In this document: one piece after another, positions 2,409 through 40,425 of the stretch
Layout: every line of letters begins with the position of its first letter
Position numbering within the stretch: position 1 is the first letter of the stretch
From: Terriglobia bacterium
GTDB taxonomy: Bacteria; Acidobacteriota; Terriglobia; 20CM-2-55-15
Reading direction: 5' to 3'
NCBI GenBank assembly: GCA_965198225.1
Contig: CBDAOY010000008.1
Span: 1-64,000 of the forward strand
DNA: 64,000 nt
The notes under the pieces: generated by a model
Told to the model about the DNA's origin: nothing
Database searches by the model: none
What the model saw: only the letters and a program-made list of their open reading frames with translations
Program-made: the position numbers and the translations under genes

Positions 2409-3368
2409 GTGGGAGCGATTCCGAAAGTTGAGAGTATCTGGCTCGATGGCAAATTCGTCGCGTGGGACGACGCGCAGATCCATATCACCGCCCATTGCCT
2501 GCATTACGGTACGGGCGTTTTCGAAGGAGTGCGTTCCTACGAGACGTCCAATGGATCGGCCGTGTTCAGGCTCGACGCCCACATGAAGCGGTTCAAGAAT
2601 TCCGCCGAAATCTACCAGATCGACATCCCGTACAGCGTCGATGATCTCCAGCAGGCAACGCTCGAGCTCGTCGCTCGCAACAAGCTCGGCGATGCCTACA
2701 TTCGCCCCATCGCTTTCAACGGCGTCTATTCGTTGGATGTCTGGCCCAGGGACTGTCCGGTAGTCGTCGCGGTAGCTGCCTGGCCCAGAGGCGAGTATCT
2801 CGGCCGCAAGGGGATCGACGAGGGAGTCCGCGTGATGTTTTCGTCGGTGCGGCGATTCCATTCGTCGATGATACCGACGTCGGGAAAGGCGTGTGGCCAG
2901 TACATCAATTCCGTCCTCGCCGTTCAGGAGGCCCAGAAAAACGGTTTCGACGAAGCGATCCTACTCAACATGGAAGGCAATGTGGCCGAGGGATCCGGCG
3001 AGAACCTCTTCCTCGTGAAGGATGGAAACCTCATAACGAACGATGCCGATGCCTCGATTCTGATGGGGATCACACGGGAAGCAATCCTGCGGATTGCCAA
3101 CGACAAGGGGATACCCGTCGAGATCCGAAGTATCAGCCAGGAAGAAGTACTCTCGGCAGACGAGCTTTTCTTTTCAGGCACCGCTGTGGAGGTGACCCCC
3201 ATCCGAGCGGTGGGAGACACGACGATCGGTGACGGACGGCGCGGCCCCCTCACCGAGACGATTCAGACGACGTTCTTCGACACGGTCCGTGGCCGAACCT
3301 CGGAGTACTCTCACTGGCTTTCCTATGTTTCGGAACGGAAGAAGGAAGAAGTGACGAGTGACAAGTGA
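2409..3368 (+). CDS. ilvE: Branched-chain amino acid aminotransferase
   Basis: 'LHYGTGVFEG', 'YIRP', PLP lysine in 'GKACGQY', 'EGSGENLF', 'ILMGITR', 'GTAVEVTPI'. Confidence 0.95.
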   Translation: MGAIPKVESIWLDGKFVAWDDAQIHITAHCLHYGTGVFEGVRSYETSNGSAVFRLDAHMKRFKNSAEIYQIDIPYSVDDLQQATLELVARNKLGDAYIRPIAFNGVYSLDVWPRDCPVVVAVAAWPRGEYLGRKGIDEGVRVMFSSVRRFHSSMIPTSGKACGQYINSVLAVQEAQKNGFDEAILLNMEGNVAEGSGENLFLVKDGNLITNDADASILMGITREAILRIANDKGIPVEIRSISQEEVLSADELFFSGTAVEVTPIRAVGDTTIGDGRRGPLTETIQTTFFDTVRGRTSEYSHWLSYVSERKKEEVTSDK

Positions 3369-3529
3369 AGAGTTTCGGTTTCTCTCATCCCCTCTGGTCG
3401 CTAACCGTCCACGTCCGTCCACAATGATCGCCCTCGACCGAATCTCGAGGCCAGACCTGCCGTGACAACCGATCAGTCACGTGTTACACGCCATGTAGCT
3501 CGTCACTTGTCGCTTGTCACTCGTCACTT
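3351..3529. repeat. Inverted heptamer arrays (GTGACGA/GTGACAA ... TCGTCAC/TTGTCAC)
   Basis: gtgacgagtgacaagtgaaga at ~3351-3371 and ctcgtcacttgtcgcttgtcactcgtcac at ~3499-3527 are complementary. Confidence 0.6.
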
Positions 3530-3553
3530 CTGGACAGTGGGCCGGATGCTCCC

Positions 3554-4723
3554 ATGATCAAACCGGCAGAACGGATGGGCAACGTTCACGGCGAGGCCGC
3601 GTTTGCCATGCTGGCAAGAGCCAACGAACTCGAGCGTGCGGGGCGGAGTATCGTCCATCTCGAGATCGGAGAGCCGGACTTCGACACGCCGCAGACGATC
3701 GTCGATTCAGCCGTCGACTGGCTCAAACGTGGAGCCACCCACTACACGGGGTCGGCCGGCATTCCGGAATTGCGGGAGGCCATCGCGGCCGACCTTCAGA
3801 GAGTTTTCCGCGCCGAGGTGGGGGCCGATCATATCGTGGTCGGTCCGGGCGCAAAGATGATGCTCTTCTCCACCATCATGAGCGTCGTCGATCCCGGCGA
3901 GGAAGTGATCGTGCCGAATCCTGCTTTTCCAGCTTACGAGGCGGCGATCGAAATCGCCCGGGGAAAGCTCATAGCCGTGCCACTGAGGGAGTCGAATGAG
4001 TTTCGGCTCCGGGTCGAGGACCTGGAAGCCAGTATCACCGAGCAGACCCGGTTGGTCGTCTTGAACTCCCCTCAGAATCCCACCGGCGGTGTCTTGACGG
4101 CTTCCGACCTGGAGGCGGTTGCGGACTTAGCCGCAAAGCACGACTTCTTGATCCTGTCCGACGAGATCTATTCCGAAATCTCCTACGGACAGCGCCCGGA
4201 GAGCATGTTGCATTTTCCCGCCATCCGAGACCGGCTGCTCCTGGTTCATGGATTTTCGAAGACTTTCGCGATGACGGGATGGCGACTCGGATTTGCCGTG
4301 CTGCCCCCGGAGCTGGTGCAGACGGTGGTGTTGTTCATCAACAGCAGCGTCTCCTGTACGGCGGCTTTCACACAGCGGGCGGCCGTGAGTGCCTTCTCGG
4401 AACATACGCGCCCCGCCGTGGAGGCGATGGTCAGCGAATTCGAGCGCCGTCGTGACAAGATCGTAGACGGGTTGAACGCGATCGATGGAATTCGCTGTCT
4501 TCGGCCCCGCGGAGCGTTTTACGTTTTCCCAAACGTCGAGGATTTGGGCATCCCGAGTAGTGTTCTGGCAGATCGATTACTCGACGAGGCCGGAGTGTCT
4601 GCACTGCCCGGGACCGCTTTCGGTCGTTACGGTGAAGGCTATCTGAGATTCTCGTTCGCAAACTCACTGGACAACATCGAAGCCGCTCTCGAGCGCATCG
4701 ACCGTTTTGTCGGTGGACTTTGA
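3554..4723 (+). CDS. PLP-dependent class I/II (aspartate-type) aminotransferase
   Basis: 'IGEPDFDTP', 'NSPQNPTG', 'SDEIY', 'GFSKTFAMTGWRLG'. Confidence 0.93.
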   Translation: MIKPAERMGNVHGEAAFAMLARANELERAGRSIVHLEIGEPDFDTPQTIVDSAVDWLKRGATHYTGSAGIPELREAIAADLQRVFRAEVGADHIVVGPGAKMMLFSTIMSVVDPGEEVIVPNPAFPAYEAAIEIARGKLIAVPLRESNEFRLRVEDLEASITEQTRLVVLNSPQNPTGGVLTASDLEAVADLAAKHDFLILSDEIYSEISYGQRPESMLHFPAIRDRLLLVHGFSKTFAMTGWRLGFAVLPPELVQTVVLFINSSVSCTAAFTQRAAVSAFSEHTRPAVEAMVSEFERRRDKIVDGLNAIDGIRCLRPRGAFYVFPNVEDLGIPSSVLADRLLDEAGVSALPGTAFGRYGEGYLRFSFANSLDNIEAALERIDRFVGGL

Positions 4724-4728
4724 GCGGG

Positions 4729-5000
4729 CTAGTGGCCTGTAACAGGGAGAGTGATAGTGGCGTTGGGAGCGCAACGGTACCGGATTCTAGGAGCGCCGCC
4801 CGAGGTAATGCTGCTTCATTGCGAGAAGGCGCGACGACGAAGACGGTGCTGTTCCGCCCCAACCCGAAGGGCCGATGGGTCTTGCCAGCGCCACGCGGAG
4901 GAGCTTGGAACAGGCGATGTGGTTCGACCTGCAACGACTCGTGAAAGGATCCGCAAGGCCCATCGGCGACGCTGTCACTATCTCTGTTACAGGTCCCTAG
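4729..5000. mobile_element. ~270 bp CTAG-flanked MITE, family A (diverged copy)
   Basis: Ends ctagtggcctgtaacag / ctgttacaggtccctag; interior alignable to 11222-11496. Confidence 0.8.
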
Positions 5001-11225: not shown

Positions 11226-11496
11226 TGACCTGTAACAGTGCTATCGGTACCAGCGTTCGGCGGAACGGCGTCGGATTCTAGGAGTGACGCTCGAGCCAAT
11301 GCTGTTTCATTGCGAGGGTGTCACGACACCGAAGACGGCGCCGTTCCGCCGAACCCTTCGGGCCGATGGGGGTTGCGGGCGATCTCTTTGTCGGAAGCCG
11401 TCACCGATGAAAGAGCATCGCTTTCCGTCTCCCTCCGCGACCTCGCCCGCAAGACCCATCGGCGATGGTACCGATAGCACTGTTACAGGCCACTAG
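11222..11496. mobile_element. ~270 bp CTAG-flanked MITE, family A
   Basis: 31-bp terminal IR with 1 mismatch (ctagtgacctgtaacagtgctatcggtacca / tggtaccgatagcactgttacaggccactag); left CTAG contains the ferredoxin stop codon. Confidence 0.88.
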
Positions 11497-35322: not shown

Positions 35323-35583
35323 GGCCTGTAACAGTGCTATCGGCACCATCGCCGATGGGTCTTGCGGGCGAGGTCGAGGAGGGAGACGGAAAGCGATGCT
35401 CTTTCATCGGTGACGGCTTCCGACAAAGAGATCGCCCGCAACCCCCATCGGCCCGAAGGGTTCGGCCCAACGGCGCCGTCTTCGGTGTCGTAACGCCCTC
35501 GCAATGAAACAGCATTGGCTCGAGCGTCACTCCTAGAATCCGACGCCGTTCCGCCGAACGCTGGTACCGATAGCACTGTTACA
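35323..35583. mobile_element. ~270 bp MITE, family A (inverted copy, ends eroded)
   Basis: Near-identical reverse complement of 11222-11496, lacking the CTAG flanks. Confidence 0.88.
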
Positions 35584-36149: not shown

Positions 36150-36593
36150 TCATGAGTCTTGTCGCTCCAGAAAGGTTTTCAGGCTTTCGCGGAGAAAATA
36201 GTCCCACCCCGCCTGGCCGCTTTCGCGGCTGAAATCTGGATTGTCCTGCGGAAAGGTCTCAATTCCCTTGTGAGAAAACTTCAATTTCGTACCGCTGGGC
36301 GTTTCCGACAGTTCCCATGTGACAGACGAGTTTCCGGCGTAACCTCCGTATCGCCAGTTGTAAGCAATTCTCCTTCCCGGAACCACGTCGGTCACTTTCC
36401 ACTGGTGTGGGTAGTCCCGGTCTTCGACCCGTACATTGAACTGCGTTTCGAAACCTACTTCAGGTTCGAAGTCAGTGATCGTCTCGAAGAACCACTGACG
36501 CATTTGATCCTTGTCGGTAATGGCCTTCCAAACCACAGCGATGGGAGCGTTGAATGTGTGTTCCACGACGATCGGGTCTGCATTTATGTCCAT
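36150..36593 (-). CDS. SRPBCC/AHSA1 domain protein
   Basis: 'FNAPIAVVWKAITD..M.QWFF', 'GWDYFL..LK.FLE'. Confidence 0.9.
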   Translation of the reverse strand: MDINADPIVVEHTFNAPIAVVWKAITDKDQMRQWFFETITDFEPEVGFETQFNVRVEDRDYPHQWKVTDVVPGRRIAYNWRYGGYAGNSSVTWELSETPSGTKLKFSHKGIETFPQDNPDFSRESGQAGWDYFLRESLKTFLERQDS

Positions 36594-36624
36594 GTGGTTC
36601 GTCCTGAAAGAATTGTCAACTGCA

Positions 36625-36723
36625 ATCTAACGTCGTTGCCGTTAAGCTGCGGGCGCGAAACAAGGCGGCGCAAGCGAAGCTTGCGACCGCTAAGACCAGC
36701 TATCCGCCAGCTTCAACGGCTTG
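36625..36723 (-). other. attC site (main part; R'' displaced to 38304-38310 by the IS110 insertion)
   Basis: Reconstructed 105 bp: GTCTAAC-AAGCCGTTgAAGCTGgCGG...CCGCAGCTTAACGGCaacgac-GTTAGAT, with extrahelical bases. Confidence 0.88.
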
Positions 36724-36808
36724 ATACTCATGAAGGCCCCCAAAGCTGCCCGCCAGGCGGGCAGGCTGGAAAGGTAACCAAACCGATTCCAAGAAGGGGG
36801 CTTTCTGA

Positions 36809-37855
36809 ATGCGATTCTATACCAACCAACATGAGTACTACTGCGGGATCGACCTGCATGCACGGACGATGTGGATTTGCATCCTCGACTCGACCGGAGA
36901 AGTCTTGGTCGACAAGAACGTCAGTGCCGGACCCGAGGAGTTTCTGAGAGTGATCGAACCCTATCGATCCGATGTGGCCGTTGGCGTGGAATGCATTTTC
37001 ACTTGGTATTGGCTGGCGGACCTGTGCGAGCGGGAAGAGATCCGGTTCGTGCTGGGTCACGCCCTGTACATGAAAGCGATTCACGGTGGGAAAGCCAAGA
37101 ACGACCGGATCGATGCCTACAAGATCGCTGTGCTACTGCGCGGCGGCATGTTGCCCCAGGCCTACGTGTATCCGGAACCGATGCGCGCCACGCGGGATCT
37201 GCTCCGTCGCCGGCTGTATCTGGTCCGTATCCGCGGTGAGCTGCTGACTCACATCCAGAACACGAATCACCAGTACAATCTCGGCCCGATTCCATCGAAA
37301 CTCCAATACCCATCCAATCGCGACGGATTCGTCGAACGATTCACCGATCCGAGCGTCCGGAAGAGCATGGACGCGGATCTGGAACTGATCGGTCACCTGG
37401 AACGCGTGATCCATGCGATTGAGGTCTATGTCCTCAAGCAAGCCCGCCAGCACGATCCCGGAGCCGTTCATCTGTTGCGGTCCATCCCGGGTATCGGCAA
37501 GATCCTGGCGCTGACGATTCTCTATGAGATTCAGAACATCGACCGATTCGAACGCGTTCAGGATTTCGTCTCCTACTCCCGGCTAGTGAAGTGTGCCAAG
37601 GAGTCGGCCGGCAAGAGAATCAGCTCCAGTTCCGGCAAGAAGATCGGTAACGTCCATTTGAAGTGGGCGTTCTCTGAAGCTGCCGTTCTGTTCCTGCGGC
37701 AGAATCCCGATGGCCAGAAATTCTTGGCTCGGCTCAGCCGCAAGCACGGCAAACCGAAAGCATTGAGCATTCTCGCTCACAAGATCGGCCGCATCACCTA
37801 TCACCTGATGCGGAGGAGGACGAACTTCGACATGCGAAAGTTTCTTGCGGCTTGA
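36809..37855 (+). CDS. IS110-family DEDD recombinase/transposase
   Basis: 'GIDLH', 'VGVEC', 'KNDRIDA', 'SIPGIGK', 'KESAGK', 'GNVHLKWAFSEAA'. Confidence 0.95.
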   Translation: MRFYTNQHEYYCGIDLHARTMWICILDSTGEVLVDKNVSAGPEEFLRVIEPYRSDVAVGVECIFTWYWLADLCEREEIRFVLGHALYMKAIHGGKAKNDRIDAYKIAVLLRGGMLPQAYVYPEPMRATRDLLRRRLYLVRIRGELLTHIQNTNHQYNLGPIPSKLQYPSNRDGFVERFTDPSVRKSMDADLELIGHLERVIHAIEVYVLKQARQHDPGAVHLLRSIPGIGKILALTILYEIQNIDRFERVQDFVSYSRLVKCAKESAGKRISSSSGKKIGNVHLKWAFSEAAVLFLRQNPDGQKFLARLSRKHGKPKALSILAHKIGRITYHLMRRRTNFDMRKFLAA

Positions 37856-38280
37856 CGGAAGGGAGCGGGAGAACCCTTTGCCTAACTGGCGTCGCTACGG
37901 TCTCATCCTCCATCGAGAATCATCATGCGTGCGGCACCGACCGCGATCACCGATTCTCATGGACCTTAGACCAGACAGCCATCTCGCTTGATTGGTTCCC
38001 GCTCCCGTTCCGACCCGACTGGTGCTCTGCCCCTCACCCGAGCCTGGAGCTAACTGGCGGCACACGCCGACACTTGAGTAGGACGGTACGAGGGTACTGA
38101 TGAATTTCTAGGTCGCGGTTCGATCCTGAACCGCAGTGCTGAGTCTTGACAGCGCTTGAACCTCAATAGGTGTTTGGTGCAGCGCATCTCGGCTGCACCG
38201 GCAATCGAATCCAAGTCGGAGCACGTCTCTCAACTTCGAATTGGCTCACTGTCGTGAGCCATGAGGATTGGTGTCGCTCT
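37856..38280 (+). ncRNA. Putative bridge/seek RNA region of the IS110 element
   Basis: No convincing ORF; hairpins at 38115-38134, 38176-38199, 38242-38261; short matches to target and donor junctions. RNA boundaries not determinable here. Confidence 0.6.
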
Positions 38281-38316
38281 TGACTCTACGGGGCCTTATA
38301 GGTGTTAGACAGCTCA

Positions 38317-38688
38317 TTAAGTGACGTGCGGCAGCGGTTCCAACTCTTCTAGGGCCGCCTTGGCTGATCGCATGGCATGCCAGAGATCCCAGTCTTGCTG
38401 TAATCCGAGCCAAAAGTCGGCACTCATCCCTGTGACGCGAGCCAACCGCAGCGCTGTGTCCGGGGTGACTGATCTCTTGCCTCGAATGATCTCATTCAGA
38501 CGGGGAAACGATACGCCCAGACGAATGGCAAAGGCCGACTGCGACACACCGAGCGGCTTTAGAAACTCCTCAAGGAGCATTTCGCCCGGATGCGTCGGAG
38601 GTTCATGGGTGGGCAGCGGGCGTGCCACCAGCGGCTTTTTCTTTGATCGGCGTTTAATGGTAGTCGGTGACTTCGACTTTGTCGGCAT
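38317..38688 (-). CDS. higA: HigA-family antitoxin (HTH)
   Basis: 'PTHPGEMLLEEFLKPLG', 'TPDTALRLA', 'FWLGLQ..WDL'. Confidence 0.92.
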   Translation of the reverse strand: MPTKSKSPTTIKRRSKKKPLVARPLPTHEPPTHPGEMLLEEFLKPLGVSQSAFAIRLGVSFPRLNEIIRGKRSVTPDTALRLARVTGMSADFWLGLQQDWDLWHAMRSAKAALEELEPLPHVT

Positions 38689-38947
38689 AGCCGTTCTCCC
38701 AAGAAAAACACACCCGGTACTGTTCATTGATCCGAATGCTATATTGGCCTGCTCTGTCGCCCACCAGTCGTTCCAAACGGTTGCCCGGCGGCACCGCCAA
38801 CTCGTGAAGATCTCGTACGCGGTTGAGTTGGGTCAGCTTTCGACGGGCTACGGGCCACAGCTCAATCAGACAGGTTCGCCGAGCTCGCCGGCTTTTGACA
38901 CCGTTGAAGATGTCCGTGGTGGCCTGATCGGCGAACGTCCGTATCAC
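38654..38947 (-). CDS. higB: HigB-family (RelE/ParE) toxin
   Basis: 'PPGNRLERLVGDRAGQYSIRINEQYRVCF', C-terminal DYH. Confidence 0.92.
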   Translation of the reverse strand: MIRTFADQATTDIFNGVKSRRARRTCLIELWPVARRKLTQLNRVRDLHELAVPPGNRLERLVGDRAGQYSIRINEQYRVCFSWENGYADKVEVTDYH

Positions 38948-38998: not shown

Positions 38999-39051
38999 GT
39001 CTAACGGTTTGTGGCTCTGTGGCCGCCGTCTGGTGCAGCCACTTGTTATAA
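38999..39051 (-). other. attC site (short, central part eroded)
   Basis: Minus strand TTATAAC-AAGTGGCTgCACCAG...GAGCCACaaacc-GTTAGAC. Confidence 0.75.
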
Positions 39052-39063
39052 CCGCTGTTCAGG

Positions 39064-39693: not shown

Positions 39694-39878
39694 ATTACCA
39701 CGATAGCACGGATGCCATGCTACTCGAAGGGCGTGTTACCGTTGTTCGATGTTCGTCGGTATAACGAATAGGGTTTTATCCGCGGTGCGGGCACGCGAAG
39801 TTTCGAAAAACGGCGAACGGACACACGGATCCAACAGCGGGACGGAGAGGATCTCTGGTTTGAAACCGGCAAACGGAA

Positions 39879-40292
39879 TCATGACGAATCCCAGGTTTGT
39901 GGCGGGAGGATTCGGACAGAAACGAGCGTTCCGATGCCGCAGGACGGGCACGGGCGGGGTTCGGCAATCCACTGGAGGAGCGGTTCTGGACGCGGTTTGC
40001 GTGGTGCCTGTGCTCGAGGCAGAAGCTGGCGGCAGCGGGCGAGGTTGCGAGCTTTGTGGCGGTTGGCCATGAAGCCGAAGTGGCGGATGCGCATCAGACC
40101 ACGTGGGAGCACGTGCAGGAGAAAGCGTCGGATGAACTCGTCGGCGTCCAGGGTCATCGTTTTGAGTCAATCGCCACTTTTGCGGTCGCGATAGAGGAAC
40201 GAGACTCCATCGGGTTCGACGGTTCGGATGCGGTGGTTGGAGATCGCGACTCTGTGGGTGTAGCGAGCCAGGTAGTCCAGGACCGTGTCGCT
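39879..40292 (-). pseudogene. IS91-family transposase, C-terminal remnant
   Basis: 'YLARYTHRVAISNHRI', internal stop at ~40167, 'EFIRRFLLHVLPRG.MRIRHFGF', terminal CPSC. Confidence 0.88.
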
Positions 40293-40425
40293 TCGTAGTG
40301 ACCCAAAACACGCAATTCCGCCACTAGCGATACTTCGGAAAACATCCCGGCACAAGCGGGGGGCTACGTCATCACCCCCAGACTCCCGATGCTTCGGGAC
40401 GGGTTGGTCAGTGAGGAAGCCGCCG

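Follow-up and report, generated by a model that had tools for sequence, protein, structure and literature searches.

An IS1111-type insertion sequence within an attC-type site of a Terriglobia bacterium, with relatives in environmental genomes

What has separated one box of an attC-type recombination site from the rest of the site in the genome of a Terriglobia bacterium, and how was that target chosen? The locus lies in a stretch of 64,000 nucleotides that was analysed as a whole (the window, C8:1-64000). Within it, a 1581-bp element (36724-38304) is inserted into an attC-type hairpin site of 105 nt, just inside the R'' box; the gene that the element carries runs antisense to the cassettes (open reading frame on the + strand, cassette genes on the - strand). 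A sequence-only reading of this DNA had described an IS110/IS1111-type element with these boundaries, core and orientation, and every item of that description is present where it was placed.

Here we argue, with high confidence, that an intact insertion sequence of the IS110 superfamily, of IS1111 type, has recombined into a double-stranded attC-type site at a TG dinucleotide. The anatomy of the element, the family-wide target, the covariation of guides with flanks and the covariation of the stem that encloses them are established here. The features are collected in Table 1.

Table 1. Features of the element, the interrupted site and the neighbouring cassettes
Feature	Position	Strand	Remark
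AHSA1/SRPBCC-family gene	36150-36593	-	PF08327; cassette-like; next gene downstream of the interrupted attC
Larger part of the interrupted attC	36625-36721	-	R' box, L'/L'' stem with two bulges, central loop
R' box GTTAGAT (minus strand)	36625-36631	-	sequence
TG core, left copy	36722-36723		sequence
GATACT, would-be -10 of the junction promoter	36723-36728	+	joined ends
Left end, 85 nt	36724-36808	+	carries the left subterminal inverted repeat
Left subterminal inverted repeat AAGGCCCC	36733-36740	+	8 bp
Recombinase gene, 348 aa	36809-37855	+	PF01548 and PF02371; NF033542
3' non-coding region, 447 nt	37856-38302	+	predicted seek/bridge RNA source; blocks conserved in 61 elements
Predicted target-binding module	37862-38005	+	encloses guides A and B
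Closing stem	37862-37871 with 37996-38005	+	covariation
Guide A TGCCTAAC	37879-37886	+	complements the right flank, the R'' box on the + strand
Guide B GCTTGAT	37986-37992	+	identical to left flank, core and first 2 nt of the element
ATAGGTGTT, candidate donor-end guide	38166-38174	+	9-nt copy of the right junction 38298-38306
TTGACT, would-be -35 of the junction promoter	38280-38285	+	joined ends
Right subterminal inverted repeat GGGGCCTT	38290-38297	+	8 bp
TG core, right copy	38303-38304		its G is the first R'' base read on the + strand
R'' box GTCTAAC (minus strand)	38304-38310	-	54/57 relatives have GTT at the junction
HTH antitoxin gene	38317-38727	-	PF01381; same higBA cassette as the higB-like toxin gene
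higB-like toxin gene	38654-38947	-	PF05015; cassette owning the interrupted attC
Short attC-like site between two higBA pairs, ending GTTAGAC	38999-39052	-	read by eye

The element and the site that it interrupts

Removal of 36724-38304, or equivalently of 36722-38302, leaves a 105-nt site that on the minus strand starts with GTCTAAC, an R'' box of the form RYYYAAC, and ends with GTTAGAT, an R' box of the form GTTRRRY. The TG at the insertion point lies across the inner boundary of the R'' box. There is no target duplication; a short core stands at both junctions, and the site is restored when one TG is deleted with the element. As single-stranded DNA the restored site folds at -28.6 kcal/mol with its R boxes paired, compared with -18.8 +/- 2.6 kcal/mol for 500 dinucleotide shuffles, none of which folds as low (z -3.7). 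One arm carries two bulges of a single base each, 7 nt apart: C36707 and C36714 in + strand letters, both of them G on the minus strand. At the corresponding + strand positions the flanks of relatives have T and mostly G. A covariance model, R1, trained with the window left out, gives a full-length match exactly at 36625-36721, its sole match in the window, at a modest score (22.7 bits, E 0.026 for 468 kb). The earlier claim that the deletion restores a canonical 105-bp attC thus holds by boxes, paired fold and model match.

The architecture is of IS1111 type: the left end is short, the non-coding region 3' of the gene is long, the inverted repeats are subterminal, and the core measures 2 bp. 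The 85 nt upstream of the gene compare with 447 nt downstream, a region that had been put at about 450 nt. The imperfect subterminal repeats and the TG at both junctions were likewise found as described, and the 8 bp of the repeats fall within the 7-17 bp that define such repeats for the IS1111 type. The reading frame is full length (348 aa, against 347-348 aa in relatives) and scores above the cut-offs of PF01548 (59.3 bits, cut-off 29), PF02371 (66.8 bits, cut-off 21.3) and NF033542 (194.4 bits, cut-off 140). Residues D15, E61, D99, D102 and S266 align with the catalytic motifs GID, IEA, D..D and YES of IS621. By its domains and motif residues the protein is a recombinase of the IS110-superfamily DEDD/Ser type, with a predicted catalytic activity; it is intact and opposed to the cassettes, as had been read.

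Joining the two ends in silico creates TTGACT, an 18-nt spacer and GATACT. By the criteria of our scan, the integrated stretch 36500-38450 holds 0 sigma-70-like sites; as had been proposed, the promoter would exist only in the circular form. Both promoter halves are conserved in 35/35 relatives whose right end was located independently of the motif, with TTGAC 23-24 nt before the right core in all 35.

The site at 38999-39052 forms the upstream boundary of the affected higBA cassette; R1 has no match there. The 5' half of this short site is found again in related genomes, with four copies within 6 kb on G012:C5. These two attC-like sites are the only ones recognised in the window, and further sites of the R1 class lie elsewhere in the genome. 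A profile search (PF00589, TIGR02249) found no tyrosine recombinase or integron integrase in the window; the sole complete integron integrase of the assembly is encoded on another contig (C6:488798-489706; 446.5 bits, cut-off 265). The cassette cluster resembles a group of attC sites without an integrase. In the phrase "integron attC", the attC-type site with its boxes and hairpin therefore stands, whereas the integron label is generous for 64 kb without a tyrosine recombinase.

Strict-box scans (RYYYAAC/GTTRRRY with R-box pairing in the minimum-energy fold) returned nothing useful in the window, and relaxed hairpin scans of the window, the C6 integrase region and the fragment regions mostly matched a 261-bp repeat. 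Related genomes hold no empty orthologous site; three of them (G012, G015, G003) carry 79-84% identical relatives of the AHSA1 gene and the higBA pair in other contexts, without this attC.

Relatives and the family-wide target

Among contigs from one genome per species, 445 of 476 candidate stretches encode relatives of the recombinase, and 79 loci were kept. These loci, all in other genomes, encode proteins of 60-70% amino acid identity and share the ends of the element. Their hosts are environmental metagenome-assembled genomes with many different phylum labels. Both ends could be located in 60 of the 79, which together with the window gives 61 elements, whose left/right cores are TG/TG (42), TG/GG (13), TG/AG (2), GG/GG (2) and GG/TG (2). 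The subterminal inverted repeats of 35 relatives are complementary at 10 or more of 12 bases.

The target is shared across the family. GTT stands at the right junction of 54 of the 57 elements with enough right flank, in 26 of the 57 as a strict GTTRRRY. A hairpin anchored at the junction and the preceding AAC occurs in 22/54 left flanks, compared with 6/1014 control positions in the same loci. The R1 model, which is home-made from the left flanks of 12 relatives, finds 96 matches in 468 kb, and 94 of the 96 share the strand of the element. Thirty-two abut an element (one assigned by eye), namely the 12 training flanks and 20 others including 36625-36721 of the window. The other 64 are uninterrupted; 54 of these are followed by GTT within 0-3 nt, just as the restored site in the window is, 28 with strict GTTRRRY. 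As judged from these matches, the 64 uninterrupted sites are family-level empty sites. Sites of this class recur every few hundred bases in the relatives' loci. The expectation that homologues, once collected with their flanks, would be found in attC-type sites interrupted at the same position is thus borne out.

Pairing between R'' and R' was tried as a criterion for the restored sites of relatives and proved too strict (5/53 pass); a second version gave 16/53 against 41/489 control joins, and the anchored hairpin and R1 were used instead.

The predicted guide RNA, the path of insertion and its alternatives

The 3' non-coding region matches no Rfam family. Its closing stem shows compensatory changes at 10 of 10 pairs among 43 sequences. 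Across the family, guide A complements the right flank at 155/275 positions, compared with 136.2 +/- 4.4 in shuffled pairings (1/10000 as high), while guide B matches five flank bases at 160/275 positions, compared with 103.2 +/- 7.2 (0/10000). In the window itself, one base of guide A fails to pair with the right flank, and the agreement of guide B is limited to three flank bases, the core and two element bases. Guide A is nearly invariant, and its rare variants pair with matching right flanks (L049, L066, L031, L061). Guide B tracks the variable left flank with matches of 6-8 nt, unusual flanks included (L041, L042, L049, L066, L086, L092).

A candidate donor-end guide, less well supported than guides A and B, may lie at 38166-38174, which copies the right end, the core and the first 2 nt of the flank (38298-38306); column 38169 follows the A/G at the right end's second-last base (A/A 24, G/G 22, A/G 12). 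A left counterpart was sought in the conserved block 38064-38122, where partial agreement with left-end variants was unconvincing. A mutual-information scan of flanks against non-coding columns was swamped by trivial self-matches and the inverted repeat.

The covariation of guides with flanks and of the stem, together with published work on seekRNA and bridge RNA (PMC11187229, PMC11208160), suggests that insertion is probably guided by a seek/bridge RNA from 37856-38302. In the path that we propose, the DEDD/Ser recombinase would join both ends at the TG core and release a circle, whose junction promoter would drive transcription of the gene together with the non-coding region 3' of it. The RNA would fold so that the stem 37862-37871/37996-38005 encloses two guide segments. 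At the right half-target, which is the conserved R'' box, the segment 37879-37886 would pair with the + strand. The segment 37986-37992 reads like the left half-target and core themselves and so would pair with the opposite strand. The recombinase would then exchange strands at TG. With R'' 1.58 kb away from its partner arm, the folded attC used by integron integrases could not form, so that the higBA cassette is probably fixed in place and its excision blocked. Any effect on an integron is hypothetical, since no integrase lies nearby.

Could the element be correctly identified and yet be a dead relic, an immobile scar in a decaying cassette cluster? The assembly holds one full copy and, beyond that, a fragment of the right end (479 bp, C6:276853-277331) and, on C9, what remains of a diverged left end, 75-76% identical. 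None of three same-genus genomes carries the element, two exact-pattern scans of metagenome contigs gave no match, and neither a circle junction nor an empty site was seen in the contigs of runs X1, X10, X16 and X17, in which rare forms are dropped. Against this, the reading frame retains its full length and all five catalytic residues, and there is no damage to either end, to the inverted repeats or to either half of the promoter. Moreover, in the contigs of run X1 the word depth of 36722-38067 is 37.1, compared with 4.05 in the left and 5.23 in the right flank; this interior depth, about 8-fold that of the flanks with 0 differing letters, is a summed contig depth and not a copy number. The pieces break at 36722 and 38308, and on other contigs the left end adjoins different flanks, so that the element occurs in more than one context in this public sample. 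We therefore regard a relic as unlikely.

It is more unlikely still that the target is some other repeated palindrome, REP-like, that merely resembles an integron attC, although the window has no integrase and just two attC-like sites, simple scans found no array, the bulges are C/C rather than T/G, and R1 is a model of our own making. The restored site has RYYYAAC/GTTRRRY end boxes, an imperfect stem and two bulges 7 nt apart in 105 nt, and it follows a toxin-antitoxin pair, a kind of gene pair that integron cassettes often carry. Sites of relatives are closely spaced and nearly all on one strand (94/96), 54 of the 64 uninterrupted ones run into GTT, and the genome encodes an integron integrase and further sites of the same class. 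We give even less credence to a choice of target by the protein or by the folded hairpin, with the non-coding blocks serving end recognition or regulation only. The right half-target is a conserved box, and the match of a nearly invariant guide A to it could be a frozen coincidence. Against this, guide B follows the variable left flank element by element with no shuffle as high, and the rare guide A variants accompany matching right flanks. Both guides also lie inside a region closed by a covarying stem, and in experiments on ISKpn4, ISPst6 and ISEc11 (PMC11187229) the RNA is required and reprogrammable. An insertion by an intact, probably RNA-guided element is the reading that we retain.

Known systems and the meaning of the locus

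An IS1111-attC group (ISPa21, ISPst6, ISKpn4) has reportedly been described by Tetu and Holmes in 2008 and by Post and Hall in 2009. Like its members, the element occupies the attC end next to R'', its right end adjoins that box and its gene runs antisense to the cassettes; it also has subterminal inverted repeats, a long downstream non-coding region, a short repeat at the junctions and no target duplication. ISPa21 in plasmid pME-1a lies between the smr cassette and qacEdelta1, on the same side and in the same orientation as our element, with GAA at both junctions and TT, GTTAGCG following on the right; its GAA is 2 nt from R'', whereas the TG of our element overlaps the first R'' base. According to PMC3001079, ISPa21 and ISPst6 insert near the attC 5' end, antisense to cassettes. 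PMC11187229 reports that ISKpn4, ISPst6 and ISPa25 target one attC end with a seekRNA from the downstream non-coding region and that circles create a promoter, and PMC11208160 places IS1111 bridge RNAs at the right end. The published seekRNAs of ISKpn4 and ISPst6 measure 82-151 nt (PMC11187229), compared with a 447-nt non-coding region here.

The recombinase is only 21% identical to that of ISPa21 over 215 aa (pairwise E 3e-4), and thus represents a separate lineage from the IS1111-attC group; ISPa21 and IS4321 are 30% identical over their full length. Judged by pairwise identities, the element is not in the published monophyletic IS1111-attC subgroup. The earlier allusion to a known attC-targeting IS1111 group is apt for the target end and orientation and does not extend to membership. 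A plasmid tblastn search listed no clinical integron plasmid among 25 of 164 and 60 of 258 records. ISPa25, which is 46% identical to the ISKpn4 transposase (PMC11187229), sets a precedent in that its diverged recombinase uses the same attC target through similar guide matches; it is still much closer to ISKpn4 than our element is to ISPa21.

Other systems share some traits. IS621 (PDB 8wt6; PMC11208160) likewise has DEDD and Ser residues, a 2-nt core and stem-enclosed guides. The predicted guides of our element extend into the product junction, on one side over left flank, core and 2 nt of the element, on the other over right end, core and 2 nt of the flank. In this they resemble handshake guides. 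Unlike our element, IS621 is of IS110 type, with its RNA from the left end and very short inverted repeats, and the match between the two recombinase sequences is weak (41.8 bits, mostly in the C-terminal domain). IS4321/IS5075 are also of IS1111 type and also target a specific conserved sequence of another mobile element, which unlike attC is the 38-bp inverted repeat of Tn21-family transposons; the recombinases are 26% identical over 122 aa. Group IIC-attC introns occupy the same attC end, antisense to cassette transcription (PMC3001079), but as retroelements they carry a ribozyme and a reverse transcriptase, neither of which the element has. Our literature search found no description of the lineage, and the IS lists of PMC11208160 and PMC11187229 may already include members.

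The behaviour, the orientation, the junction promoter and the RNA guidance are already published for other IS1111 elements, and current understanding stands. The habit is known from clinical integrons; this copy, to judge from its recombinase and its relatives, is of a distant and widespread environmental lineage. Tentative, and in our estimate somewhat short of an even chance, is a joint reading in which a deep, undescribed IS110-superfamily lineage, at least as distant from the clinical IS1111-attC group as from other members of IS1111, fixed its guide on the attC R'' box independently or very anciently and spread through the cassette arrays of many environmental phyla, with one guide half held on the conserved box and the other re-tuned at each site. 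If this is true, attC parasitism by RNA-guided recombinases would be a general, repeatedly evolved part of integron ecology and not a Pseudomonas or clinical oddity, and in this family nature would have provided a series of reprogrammed guides on a larger RNA of about 450 nt. For integron biology, the finding means that insertion sequences which invade attC sites are common beyond clinical settings, with relatives in 445 of 476 candidate stretches, and that in clusters without an integrase they can lock cassettes in place, as is probably the case for the toxin-antitoxin pair here. For RNA-guided recombinases, it offers dozens of natural guide-target pairs at one defined target, with re-tuned left guides and a covarying scaffold.

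The element and the site it interrupts

The 1581-bp element lies between positions 36722 and 38304, with the core dinucleotide TG at either side. Its protein contains the DEDD_Tnp_IS110 and Transposase_20 domains and scores 194.4 bits (cut-off 140) against NCBIfam NF033542, 'IS110 family RNA-guided transposase'. Alignment to the solved IS621 recombinase places D15, E61, D99, D102 and S266 on the conserved GID, IEA, D..D and YES motifs, whose positions we take to be catalytic. With non-coding ends of 85 nt on the left and 447 nt on the 3′ side and 8-bp repeats near both ends, the layout (short left end, long 3′ non-coding region, subterminal repeats) is that of IS1111 elements as described in excerpts of PMC11187229 and PMC11208160.

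Removing the element together with one TG leaves a 105-nt site that reads GTCTAAC...GTTAGAT on the minus strand, which also encodes the neighboring genes. Folded as single-stranded DNA, this site reaches -28.6 kcal/mol compared to -18.8 +/- 2.6 for 500 dinucleotide shuffles, none of which was as low; both boxes pair within a long imperfect stem carrying two single-base bulges 7 nt apart. The sequence-only reading had described an IS110/IS1111-type element with a DEDD plus Ser recombinase, a TG core at both junctions, subterminal inverted repeats and a right non-coding end of about 450 nt, whose deletion restores a 105-bp attC, the recombination site of integron cassettes. Its observation holds, as does nearly all of its interpretation. 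Of its term 'integron attC', the attC-type site stands and the integron part is generous. The context is weaker than 'an integron': the 64-kb window holds no tyrosine recombinase, the complete integrase lies on contig C6, and only two attC-like sites, the interrupted one and a short one, were recognized in the window. Around the complete integrase gene on C6, an obvious attC array was likewise not picked up by simple scans.

In cassette orientation, a HigB-like toxin and HTH antitoxin pair lies directly upstream of the interrupted site and is itself preceded by a second such pair, while an AHSA1-family gene comes after the site. The insertion would putatively block excision of the higBA cassette; with no integrase encoded nearby, this effect would need one supplied in trans. 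At the position expected of an integrase, immediately before the first higBA pair, two short minus-strand frames (39736-40355) represent a broken rolling-circle transposase gene: they match Y2_Tnp (IS91-family) transposase in its C-terminal part alone (42.8 and 39.6 bits; profile positions 103-141 and 147-181). The 5′ half of the short attC-like site (39017-39059) recurs in several related genomes at 90-100 % identity over ~30 nt; one of them, G012, has four copies within 6 kb (C5:1166914-1172537) beside an AHSA1 gene copy of 83 % identity. This suggests cassettes shared among related genomes and a family-typical short attC missed by R1, our home-made covariance model of attC-type left flanks.

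Locations of the element's features, its site and related sequences. Positions without a prefix are in the window; C4, C6, C7 and C9 are other contigs of the same assembly (G000).
Feature	Location	Strand	Remarks
Recombinase gene	36809-37855	+	only long frame in the element; 348 aa
8-bp inverted repeat, left copy	36733-36740		9 nt inside left core
8-bp inverted repeat, right copy	38290-38297		5 nt inside right core
Predicted guide A	37879-37886		TGCCTAAC; complementary to + strand of right flank
Predicted guide B	37986-37992		GCTTGAT; repeats last flank bases, core and element's first two bases
Third block	38166-38174		repeats right junction: right end, core, 2 flank bases
Bulged bases of 105-nt site	C36707, C36714	+	from the fold
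Short attC-like site	38999-39052		54 nt; between the two toxin-antitoxin pairs
Right-end-only fragment (L002)	C6:276853-277331		99.8 % identity to window element
Left-end remnant of related element (L003)	C9:216306-216403		75-76 % identical; beside weak attC-like hairpin
Complete integron integrase	C6:488798-489706		sole one of assembly; TIGR02249 446.5 bits; match reads through one TGA
Integron integrase C-terminal fragments (two)	C9:206391-206549; C7:902096-902272		
152-bit tyrosine recombinase places	C4:27259, C4:64429, C6:346713, C6:618044, C7:944350		
152-bit tyrosine recombinase places, continued	C9:765924, C9:777637, C9:792600, C9:816709		four within 51 kb

Target sites across the family

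Scanning one genome per species revealed relatives in 445 of 476 candidate stretches. For comparison we kept 79 loci (60-70 % amino acid identity, record titles from many phyla) and placed both ends in 60 of them, plus the window; 5 loci have no recognizable left end and 14 no right end, mostly due to short contigs. In 54 of the 57 elements whose right flank is 10 nt or longer, that flank begins with GTT, core G counted (strict GTTRRRY in 26 of 57); the left-flank consensus is CGCCGTCGGCTGCAGCGGCT. A left-flank hairpin preceded by AAC and closing within a few bases of the junction is found in 22/54 elements versus 6/1014 control positions from the same loci (30/54 elements at a looser energy threshold). 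The hairpin is missing from about a third of left flanks, and a few flanks appear unrelated (e.g. L019, L021, L030, L043, L050); thus, off-target or decayed sites exist.

R1 was trained on 12 of the 16 short left flanks passing the hairpin test, leaving out three ~90-nt flanks and one with a doubtful box; its alignment excluded the window and the R'' end box. In the consensus, a 12-pair stem has compensatory changes in 9 pairs, and its junction-proximal arm carries two bulged bases, T and mostly G. Searching 83 sources (468 kb, E up to 1) returned 96 matches, 94 of them on the element's strand. Elements adjoin 32 matches (12 training flanks and 20 others, one of the 32 assigned by eye and not by script); the other 64 are sites with no insertion, at intervals of a few hundred bases. 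GTT follows within 0-3 nt in 54 of these 64 sites (strict GTTRRRY in 28), the usual continuation being TG then TTRGRC. Deleting an element yields this same continuation. Insertion at TG, on the inner edge of R'', is therefore a trait of the whole family, which appears to target arrayed attC-type sites. On the first check proposed earlier, homologues share the junction position. R1, home-made in place of a curated attC model, matches the larger part of the interrupted site at full model length (36625-36721; 22.7 bits, E 0.026), its sole match in the window. At least four further sites lie on contigs C3 and C7 of the same genome (150 of 6845 candidates scored).

A relative at 62 % amino acid identity (L057) lies on a 2.8-kb contig titled Heimdallarchaeota MAG and binned as archaeal; its left flank, an R1 training sequence, is attC-type (51.7 bits with R1). 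The archaeal placement could be mis-binning or transfer. Another relative (L094, 52.6 % identical), at 2900-4520 of Vibrio campbellii plasmid NC_022271, keeps the family end sequences (TG ATACTCAT...; TTGACA ... TG) and has GTTATGT next to them; no attC character is obvious in its left flank, and its immediate upstream neighbor is another IS110-family gene.

A predicted guide RNA

The non-coding regions of 61 elements have several conserved blocks in common, two of which, guides A and B, relate to the target. Guide A is nearly invariant, and its rare variants (L049, L066, L031, L061) are paired with matching flanks; guide B closely follows unusual left flanks (L041, L042, L049, L066, L086, L092). 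Across 55 elements, guide B is identical to the five left-flank bases at 160 of 275 positions (103.2 +/- 7.2 in shuffled pairings; 0/10000 as high) and guide A complements the five variable right-flank bases at 155 of 275 (136.2 +/- 4.4; 1/10000 as high), counts that overstate significance somewhat because related elements are not independent. L025 and L026 are the same element at two sites and the guide matches only one of the two flanks, so the flank is not part of the element.

A closing stem (37862-37871 with 37996-38005) surrounds both guides (43 of 60 length-filtered sequences), with compensatory changes in 10/10 pairs and in 4 more pairs of an inner hairpin. Together with guide-flank matching above shuffles, this covarying stem supports, at family level and for a predicted RNA, the RNA-guided type assigned from sequence. 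In the window, a single mismatch separates guide A from its own flank over 8-9 positions; the match of guide B covers 3 flank bases together with the core and 2 element bases. The third block varies with A/G near the right end and is a less supported candidate for a donor-end guide; the element's non-coding region offers no convincing candidate for the left donor end. The order of the guides, A then B from 5′ to 3′, is also that given for ISEc11, ISPa11 and ISKpn4 in an excerpt of PMC11187229.

Mobility and relation to published elements

Joining the ends by script creates TTGACT, 18 nt and GATACT, which would qualify under the promoter tool's criteria, and the integrated stretch has zero such sites; the predicted promoter would be confined to the joined form, as the sequence-only reading held. 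Among 35 relatives with the right end located by inverted repeat alone, TTGAC precedes the core in all 35 (by 23 nt in 34, 24 nt in one) and GATACT is present at the left end in 26.

Evidence that the element may currently be mobile is indirect. In contigs of public run X1, a piece over 36722-38067 has a word depth of 37.1 with zero differing letters, compared to 4.05 (left) and 5.23 (right) for the flanks; these depths are summed over contigs and do not give a copy number. Breaks between pieces fall at 36722 and 38308. Among sample contigs, one of 6.6 kb has the left end next to a flank that resembles the window's without being the same, and two carry unrelated sequence ahead of 36719; neither circle joint nor empty-site joint occurs in those searched. 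Within the assembly, the element is complete only once; the other two traces are the C6 right-end fragment and the diverged C9 left-end remnant. The C6 fragment spans from the last recombinase codons to TG, its adjoining flank is not attC-like, and its junction is also present in run X17. The element was found in 0/3 same-genus genomes.

Other repeats populate this genome. A 261-bp repeat, present at 35323-35583 and 11231-11491 and as a diverged piece at 4769-4885, has inverted repeats of ~21 bp (TGTAACAGTGCTATCGG...) at its ends and no long open frame noted. With >50 near-full-length copies at 95-99.6 % identity on eight of nine contigs, along with older diverged families, it resembles a miniature inverted-repeat element that has spread very successfully; some copies are near the C6 right-end fragment and the C9 integrase fragment. 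A tyrosine recombinase scoring 152 bits at nine places, with a 313-aa frame in seven, would be a multi-copy mobile element of another kind.

Targeting of attC by IS1111 elements is already established, as the sequence-only reading stated. Excerpts of PMC3001079 describe ISPa21 and ISPst6 as inserting antisense to the cassettes, close to the attC 5′ end; those of PMC11187229 report that ISKpn4, ISPst6 and ISPa25 target one attC end, with a seekRNA encoded downstream of the gene, and that circles of such elements create a promoter. For IS1111 elements, an excerpt of PMC11208160 places predicted bridge RNAs in the right end, and impairment of attC function by ISPa21 is suspected and little tested according to part of PMC11616780. 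We checked ISPa21 directly in plasmid pME-1a, where it lies antisense between the smr cassette and qacEdelta1 with GAA at both junctions and its right end 2 nt from GTTAGCG. It shares the attC end and orientation of the window element, with insertion points a few bases apart.

The proteins can barely be aligned: the window protein is 21 % identical to ISPa21 over 215 aa and 26 % to IS4321 over 122 aa, compared to 30 % over full length between ISPa21 and IS4321. No clinical integron plasmid is among the plasmid tblastn matches listed (best 25 of 164 at E 1e-5; best 60 of 258 at E 1e-3). The element works like the IS1111-attC group but by phylogeny would fall outside it, as a probable separate lineage with known attC-targeting behavior. 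We found no description of this lineage in the literature; ISfinder and supplements lay outside the search, and it may already be named. The case is consistent with the textbook picture of attC-targeting IS1111 elements, and adds a demonstration, across the family, of the target and of covariation between guide and target in a lineage distant from the one already published.
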